Shown: piece by piece, positions 11,880 to 13,421 of the stretch
Position numbering within the stretch: the stretch's first letter is position 1
Layout of the letters: every line of letters starts with the position of its first letter
Source of the DNA: Escherichia coli
GTDB taxonomy: Bacteria; Pseudomonadota; Gammaproteobacteria; Enterobacterales; Enterobacteriaceae
Assembly (NCBI RefSeq): GCF_003334355.1
Contig: NZ_QOWP01000048.1
DNA length: 19,380 nt
Strand: one strand, 5' to 3'
The notes under the pieces: generated by a model
The model's database searches: none
Seen by the model: the letters and a program-made list of their open reading frames with translations, nothing else
Told to the model about the DNA's origin: nothing
Made by a program: the position numbers and the translations under genes

Positions 11880-12645
11880 GTTTAGCAACATATGCGGCTT
11901 GCCCTGAACACCGGGCACCACTGTATTGATGCTCATTTTCCATAGCCATTCCCTTTTGTTCATTACATCCATGTCAGTCTGAGACAGGCCTGAATCCTGT
12001 CAGCAAAGTATAAAACCTTACTTGCCTATGAATATCTACTGACTTTTCAGGAAAAAAGTCATGATTTGATAAAAATCATCAAACTCAAAAAAAAACCGCT
12101 AGTATATTCTGAATATTCCGAATAGTTACGTAGATGAAAATACTTGTCACCACCGCTACTTAATTCCGGTGGGAAATTATTTATTTCCGCATAATCAGCT
12201 ATGTATTATTTAAAACAATTAGTTTGTAAATAATATAAATTGATAACATATCAAATACATCAAAAATACCATTCACAGGCATTATTAATATAGACATCAA
12301 TATAGCAACATCAAATTCCAATTAGTAATAAGATATGCTTTTAAATTGCATGCAAATAATTTTAAATGAGCGTTTTTTGATACTTTAGAGTGTTTCCCAC
12401 CATTTAATATCACTGTGTAGAGTTGATATCACTACAACAGAAACATGCATGTCATTTGTTTACTTCTCTTTTTACTACAGAAAAATTTATCTATTTTTCT
12501 AAGCATCAGTGAAATACTCATAAAGGTAACTATTATGTCTATGCCATTAAGCAATGCCCTTCAGAGTTAAATTATTACAGATAATCACTTCCTTCATCAT
12601 CCAAAAGTCGACAGTGAGTTAACACGTAAACATGAACGTGCACGC
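11880..12645. other. ~770-bp strongly AT-rich intergenic region (iraD upstream / yjiC upstream); probable curved, H-NS-type silenced regulatory DNA
   Basis: By eye well over 70% A+T with many A- and T-tracts (e.g. CAAACTCAAAAAAAAACCG, TTTAAAACAATTAGTTTGTAAATAATATAAATTG). No ORF of 60 aa or more on either strand. Confidence 0.7.
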
Positions 12646-13224
12646 ATGGATACGGAAAATATCTATCTTCCGCCTCTTGCTCGTGGCAATAACCATAATT
12701 ACGATGGAAAAAGCGTTGTCGAAATTAGAAAACTTGATATTAGTAAAGAGTCCTGGCCATTTAATTATGTGACAGAAACATGCAGAGAATTCAATGGTAT
12801 TACAACAACAGGACGTATGCTCTATCGAAACTTGAAAATCACCTCAGCTTTAGACGAAATATATGGTGGTATATGTAAAAAGGCGCATGCTGCCACAGAG
12901 TTAGCAAAAGGATTACGGCTAAATTTATTTATGAAAGGCCCTTTCGATCCTGTTGAGGACTATACAGTTCATGAAATAACATTAGGCCCTGGTTGCAATG
13001 TTCCTGGTTATGCCGGAACCACGATAGGATATATTTCAACCCTTCCAGCTTCTCAGGCAAAAAGATGGACCAATGAGCAGCCAAGGATTGATATCTATAT
13101 TGATCAGATAATGACGGTAACAGGGGTAGCAAATTCTTCCGGATTCGCCCTTGCCGCATTACTTAATGCTAATATTGAGTTGGGTAATGACCCAATAATT
13201 GGTATAGAAGCCTATCCCGGGTGA
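12646..13224 (+). CDS. yjiC: yjiC-like hypothetical protein (192-aa intact ORF; locus appears frame-disrupted, see findings)
   Basis: Position between iraD and uxuR matches yjiC in K-12. Low-GC coding sequence. An open frame continues in +1 for 32 more codons after the stop, and an in-frame TAA at 12568 separates a short upstream ORF. Confidence 0.55.
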   Translation: MDTENIYLPPLARGNNHNYDGKSVVEIRKLDISKESWPFNYVTETCREFNGITTTGRMLYRNLKITSALDEIYGGICKKAHAATELAKGLRLNLFMKGPFDPVEDYTVHEITLGPGCNVPGYAGTTIGYISTLPASQAKRWTNEQPRIDIYIDQIMTVTGVANSSGFALAALLNANIELGNDPIIGIEAYPG

Positions 13225-13421
13225 TGAAAATGCACCACTCAAACGTATGACTCTGCAACCGTCATCTCTTCCAGAACTGTTTGAATTAAAAAATGGTGAA
13301 TGGAATTATATTGGTAAATAACTACCAGGAAGAATGAGTACTAACATTCAGGTTATACAGATAGCTAAACAATCCCCTGCAATTTACAAAGTAATACTCA
13401 TTGCGACTTCTTAATTTAAGA

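Follow-up and report, generated by a model that had tools for sequence, protein, structure and literature searches.

The window analysed here is a 19,380-nucleotide stretch of an Escherichia coli contig in which yjiC, flanked by ytiD-iraD on one side and uxuR on the other, does not form a single reading frame. A preliminary description had pointed to a 192-aa ORF preceded by an in-frame TAA and followed, in the +1 frame, by a 32-codon tail of protein-like sequence, all at coordinates that are confirmed here (Table 1), and had offered either decay of a longer ancestral gene or a sequencing error as explanations. The question raised by the locus is whether it is a gene, the ruin of one or an artefact. 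The comparisons reported below point with high confidence to a non-functional remnant (pseudogene) of yjiC, which in its intact form encodes a 276-aa DUF2686 protein, disabled by a 44-bp deletion and, probably later, by a premature stop codon.

Organization of the yjiC locus

The window locus was compared with the intact 276-aa yjiC alleles of K-12, O104:H4 and O157. In these three genomes RefSeq places an 831-bp yjiC between ytiD/idlP/iraD and uxuR, the same neighbours as in the window, and labels the product as "YjfZ/YjiC family" or "DUF2686 family protein". The length of these alleles bears out the earlier proposal of a longer ancestral yjiC. The features recognized in the window are collected in Table 1.

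Table 1. Features of the disrupted yjiC locus (positions are those of the window).
Feature	Position	Strand	Description	Basis
yjiC remnant, very likely a pseudogene, whole	12535..13321	+	787 bp, against 831 bp (276 aa) in intact alleles	Alignments to K-12, O104:H4 and O157 yjiC
Remnant of codons 1-11 (MSMPLSNALQS)	12535..12567	+		Start equals the RefSeq yjiC CDS start in K-12, O104:H4 and O157
Nonsense codon TAA (Q12*)	12568..12570	+		Reads CAA in all intact alleles examined, as well as in four deletion-only genomes
Longest residual ORF, 192 aa	12646..13224	+	Ancestral residues 38-229
Single kept copy of TATCCCGG, the 44-bp deletion junction	13213..13220	+		Alignments to intact alleles
TGA-TGA, out-of-frame stops just past the deletion junction	13222..13227	+		Sequence reading
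Stranded ancestral C-terminus, residues 245-276	13223..13321	+	DENAPLKRMTLQPSSLPELFELKNGEWNYIGK*; stop at 13319-13321	+1 frame

The residual ORF ends in ...AYPG, after which a first TGA (13222-13224) is directly followed by a second (13225-13227). The upstream TAA lies in frame with this ORF, 11 codons past ATG 12535. A short upstream ORF had been described with two candidate starts, of which ATG 12535 stands as the equivalent of the RefSeq start. ATG 12445, which is also in frame with the 192-aa ORF in the window, is not conserved and lies out of frame in K-12 and O157. The run of A residues at about 12518-12523, upstream of ATG 12535, shows a 1-nt length polymorphism, reading CATAAAGG in the window and O104:H4 and CATAAAAGG in K-12 and O157, and the alignment places an extra A near 12521 in the latter two alleles, which shifts ATG 12445 out of frame there. 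Because the length of this run sets its frame, the 41-aa ORF that starts at ATG 12445 is allele-specific.

The ytiD-yjiC intergenic region (12001-12534) is very AT-rich, positions 12001-12500 upstream of yjiC having 27.6% GC versus about 52% in the flanks. This composition fits the listing of the yjiC/iraD intergenic region among the H-NS-bound "promoter islands" tied to predicted foreign genes (PMC3661553). Small ORFs of 51-117 bp, their length depending on the strain, are called in this region by PGAP as "hypothetical protein", and in the window the first codon of ytiD (12059-12202, minus strand) is ATT. No Rfam match was obtained in 11400-13600, and a scan for promoters and terminators returned nothing exceeding shuffled expectation.

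A 44-bp deletion and a nonsense codon

The break at the 3' end of the residual ORF had been ascribed to a homopolymer indel in a CCCGGG run, an explanation that the alignments replace by a larger event: compared with the intact alleles, 44 bp are missing from the window between two direct copies of the 8-mer TATCCCGG, one of which is kept. Intact alleles read GCC-TATCCCGG-TACCGCGGAGATCCATGCAAAAATGGGATATAAAGT-TATCCCGG-GTGATGAA, with 36 bp separating the two copies, where the window reads GCC-TATCCCGG-GTGATGAA. The 8-mer is itself the perfectly matching 3' core of a longer, imperfect direct repeat of 24 nt (75% identity, 44-nt spacing), so that direct repeats occur at both edges of the missing segment in the intact form and a single copy at the junction, the pattern of a deletion between short direct repeats. 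The CCCGGG run consists of the kept repeat and the next base.

Since 44 equals 3 x 14 + 2, the frame is shifted and a TGA is met directly after Gly229. The deletion costs about 15 codons (residues 230-244, TAEIHAKMGYKVIPG), including the family-invariant His234, Gly238, Tyr239 and Val241, and leaves the last 32 conserved codons out of frame. The DNA of this tail is identical in the window, K-12 and O104:H4, and its peptide is strongly conserved in every full-length family member, down to an E. albertii member of about 62% identity. The reference orthologues do not end at the stop of the 192-aa ORF and read on through the tail, which, as the preliminary description suspected, is no coincidence. 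A 32-codon open stretch in sequence of about 40% GC has a chance probability of about 0.1 (hand estimate), which is not significant alone; the tail is taken as a real coding remnant because of its homology and not its openness. The second lesion lies at codon 12, which is TAA in the window and CAA in all intact alleles examined, making the upstream TAA a genuine nonsense mutation, as had been supposed.

Slipped-strand mispairing or misaligned repair between short repeats is the classic RecA-independent route to such deletions, and spontaneous deletions between short direct repeats through slipped-strand mispairing are classically described for E. coli lacI. The window resembles the lacI-type deletions in that its missing segment is edged by a perfect 8-bp repeat of which exactly one copy is kept. 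It differs from them in that the mechanism is here deduced from the end product alone and in that the repeats show no hairpin potential, DNA folding of the intact segment being no better than that of shuffles (z = 0.34). Judged by this end product, slipped-strand mispairing or misaligned repair between the two copies of TATCCCGG would account for the 44-bp deletion.

The residual ORF and the DUF2686 family

The Pfam model PF10887 (DUF2686) matches the intact K-12 protein over its whole length (E = 2e-165, model positions 1-285, residues 1-276) and the residual ORF of the window over positions 46-238 of 285 (E = 5.8e-111), the first 45 and the last 47 model positions being absent from the latter. 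The locus thus holds no full-length uninterrupted DUF2686 frame: it is broken by the stop at codon 12 and by the frameshift after codon 229. Across the family, the deleted residues and the C-terminal tail vary little or not at all.

Members of the family were found in Escherichia and Shigella, including E. albertii, with no relatives beyond. A word-indexed search gave 25 clusters, those with a name all coming from Escherichia or Shigella, and an exhaustive profile search of 1.84 billion representatives added only fragments of the same family. The yjiC product had no match in NCBIfam, PADLOC or PHROGs, and searches of the PDB by sequence and by profile gave nothing under E = 0.08. AlphaFold2, run on a 15-sequence family alignment, gave a mean pLDDT of 35.7, too poor for a fold search. 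As to function, an atypical EPEC strain with a transposon insertion in yjiC is biofilm-deficient (PMC4100040), and AZT induces yjiC independently of LexA, as it does the neighbour iraD (PMC11228462).

It could be argued that translation from ATG 12646 yields a shortened but functional 192-aa protein kept by selection, as the ORF is open, retains the central part of DUF2686, is very common and appears in older annotations as a hypothetical protein. This is very unlikely. The ATG corresponds to residue 38, which is Met in this allele type and Leu (CTG) in five of the ten aligned alleles, O157 and two deletion alleles among them, and the sequence ahead of it (AACATGAACGTGCACGC-ATG) shows on reading no obvious Shine-Dalgarno motif. 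Given this lack of conservation of the start residue and of an evident Shine-Dalgarno sequence, the ORF is best regarded as a by-product and not as a gene. The predicted product would also lack 37 N-terminal and 47 C-terminal ancestral residues, among them the most conserved C-terminal block, and family-invariant residues are replaced within the deletion clade (G151D in AR_0162 and a Norwegian pig isolate, S202Y in SK1144). The abundance of the ORF is explained by clonal expansion of the carrier lineages, and RefSeq treats its locus as a pseudogene.

Occurrence in complete E. coli genomes

The distribution of the lesions was assessed in 5,426 complete E. coli genomes by megablast with the 1,161-bp yjiC locus (12300-13460) as query. 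The locus was matched in 4,910/5,426 genomes, leaving 516 in which no megablast match was present, and the 44-bp segment was found in 4,066/5,426. By subtraction (4,910 minus 4,066), about 844 of the 5,426 genomes (range 810-845) carry the deletion; a few of these may be without the segment for reasons other than this deletion, and the range reflects 32 genomes in which less than 80% of the query was covered. The same number, 844, was obtained for matches at 99% identity or more in the search with the 1,161-bp locus. An exact 61-mer carrying the TAA of the window occurs in 587/5,426 genomes and that of a second TAA haplotype (TAA plus G12580T) in 218/5,426, which brings the carriers of the nonsense codon to at least 805/5,426.

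These counts bear on the possibility, raised at the outset, that a miscalled homopolymer at CCCGGG created a false frameshift in an intact gene. The junction does fall inside a C3G3 run, and dropping one G of the GGG at 13219-13221 would arithmetically join the frames of body and tail. Yet the gap to the intact alleles is 44 bp and not 1 nt, about 844 genomes are without the 44-bp segment, and many complete genomes that were sequenced independently, among them several CDC AR-bank isolates, Nissle 1917 and an O25b:H4 strain, match the 1,161-bp locus at 100% identity. Moreover, records of the exact 192-aa product, which older annotations name a hypothetical protein, come from at least 1,000 contigs, and the TAA is a separate lesion with its own carriers. 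A sequencing or assembly error is accordingly extremely improbable.

The window as a whole has a best match of only 99.5% identity among the 5,426 complete genomes (TUM17668, FORC_031 and others), versus 100% for the yjiC locus alone; its source strain is absent from the collection, and the region has a mosaic look. The window is bounded on both sides (1-76 and 19204-19380) by IS1 termini, the inverted repeat GGTGATGCTGCCAACTTACTGATTTAGTGTATGATGG starting at 19204 and its counterpart lying at 38-76 on the other strand. Because of these ends, the search with the whole window matched many plasmids and every genome, the latter at a median of 38 places each. A fimbrial remnant at approximately 19032-19202 lies next to gntP, where RefSeq annotates in TUM17668 a truncated fimbrial gene and then IS1; the fim region appears to have been cut by IS1.

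Probable order of the lesions and subsequent decay

All seven of the TAA genomes inspected also carry the 44-bp deletion. Conversely, the deletion is found together with an unaltered CAA codon in four complete genomes (SK1144, 90-3040, 2013C-3492 and 2013C-4830), which argues that the deletion probably preceded the nonsense codon and that the latter was a later hit in one sub-lineage. The deletion allele of SK1144 belongs to the window's own background, from which it differs by 3 nt, and shares the derived E125K and S135G changes. The order rests on parsimony; reversion of TAA to CAA, or recombination in the strains combining CAA with the deletion, is possible and less economical.

A parallel case is offered by the deletion-only genome 2013C-4830, which has acquired its own CAA>TAA change in the ancestral-frame tail (CTGCAACC to CTGTAACC, alignment column 766, equivalent to window position 13256). 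This stop parallels Q12* of the window and supports a sequence of deletion first and decay afterwards. Together with the replaced invariant residues, these second stops are consistent with neutral decay, few substitutions being seen in the deletion clade; these were classified by hand, with a protein alignment as a check. The nesting of the lesions suggests that the deletion came first and by itself would have abolished protein function, that the nonsense codon was a later and probably neutral second hit, and that drift of the locus followed, with the 192-aa ORF simply the longest open stretch remaining.

The same evidence weighs on a further reading, in which the body and the tail would be rejoined by programmed +1 ribosomal frameshifting of the prfB style, stimulated by the stop codon, at CCC-GGG-UGA. 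An in-frame stop stands directly at the shift point and the +1 frame encodes conserved protein sequence, but the likeness to prfB is one of layout only. The two-frame arrangement is derived, since all intact homologues are single-frame with 44 more bases and the shift site occurs in deletion alleles only, and no purine-rich, SD-like stimulator is seen in 13195-13221 (ATAGAAGCCTATCCCGGGTGA, sequence reading), in keeping with the earlier remark that no programmed-frameshift context was obvious. Neither the stop at codon 12 nor the tail stop of the sister deletion lineage would be tolerable if a fused product mattered, and the rejoined product would still lack the invariant His234, Gly238 and Tyr239. 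The likelihood of this reading is negligible, and the preferred one remains a deletion followed by decay.

Loss of yjiC is also reached by routes other than the 44-bp deletion. In AVS0366 an IS1 is inserted within the last three yjiC codons, resulting in an altered 280-aa product (locus positions 1350-1440), and in 2018-18.25PC ytiD and yjiC have given way altogether to two copies of IS1 (locus positions 1435-2985).

One or several origins of the deletion

The deletion junction is identical in alleles of at least three 5' backgrounds: that of the window and SK1144; a second type found in a metagenome contig and a Logan contig; and that of 90-3040, in which O157-like and private SNPs extend to 84 bp upstream of the junction. 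The window-type 3' part is common to all three. In O157-type alleles the core repeats are imperfect (TATCCAGG and TATCCCCGG), and the 44-bp deletion was not found in any O157-type allele examined. The presence of the same junction in several backgrounds is compatible both with recurrent slippage at a perfect repeat and with a single deletion spread by intragenic recombination.

A bolder proposal is that the deletion had separate origins in three or more allelic backgrounds, the repeats forming a hotspot, and was also favoured by selection, in which case an H-NS-silenced orphan gene linked to biofilms would have been lost convergently and adaptively. This we consider unlikely. If true, it would replace neutral decay spread by descent and recombination, and would concern successful lineages such as O25b:H4 strains, Nissle 1917 and some CDC-sequenced clinical isolates.

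Annotated counterparts and implications

The disrupted gene is an ordinary and already annotated one, flagged as frameshifted by RefSeq. In Nissle 1917 (CIW80_RS26070, "DUF2686 family protein, frameshifted") the same locus is identical in sequence to the window, as is that of TUM17668, which bears the same annotation; AR_0162, NDM5 and DETEC-P61 are annotated likewise and differ from the window by 1-6 substitutions. All five share with the window the neighbouring genes, the 44-bp deletion and the TAA. The RefSeq/PGAP feature in Nissle 1917 and TUM17668 is the equivalent of 12571-13321 and starts after the TAA; its record gives "frameshifted" only, the repeat-mediated deletion and the order of the lesions being absent from it, and no description of this yjiC pseudogene was found in the literature searched. 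The intact orthologue at the same chromosomal position, K-12 YjiC (WP_000062552.1, 276 aa, PF10887, "YjfZ/YjiC family protein"), shares 95% amino-acid identity with the residual ORF; with CAA at codon 12 and the 44 bp in place, it forms one continuous frame, whereas the window copy is broken twice.

For annotation, it follows that the 192-aa "hypothetical protein" of older records is a fragment of a pseudogene and should not be handled as a variant of the protein family. Likewise, pipelines for polishing or "frameshift correction" should not alter the lesion, which is a repeat-mediated deletion of 44 bp and not a homopolymer error.

An E. coli-specific "YjfZ" qPCR assay has been published (PMC11057252), and its forward, reverse and Sanger primers were compared with yjiC. 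The forward primer matches yjiC exactly at 12806-12827 (+) and the reverse primer matches at 12898-12919 (-) with 2 mismatches, while the Sanger primer GCCATTAAGCAATGTCCTTCAG matches the start of O157-type yjiC. From these matches, the target of the marker would seem to be yjiC, either alone or together with yjfZ. The yjiC pseudogene still contains the amplicon region.

About 15% of complete E. coli genomes have a dead yjiC, and a further 10% or so have no megablast match to the locus. The frequency of this loss bears on studies linking yjiC to biofilm formation and on the published qPCR marker whose primers map here. Overall, the finding describes the routine decay of an accessory, AT-rich orphan gene.
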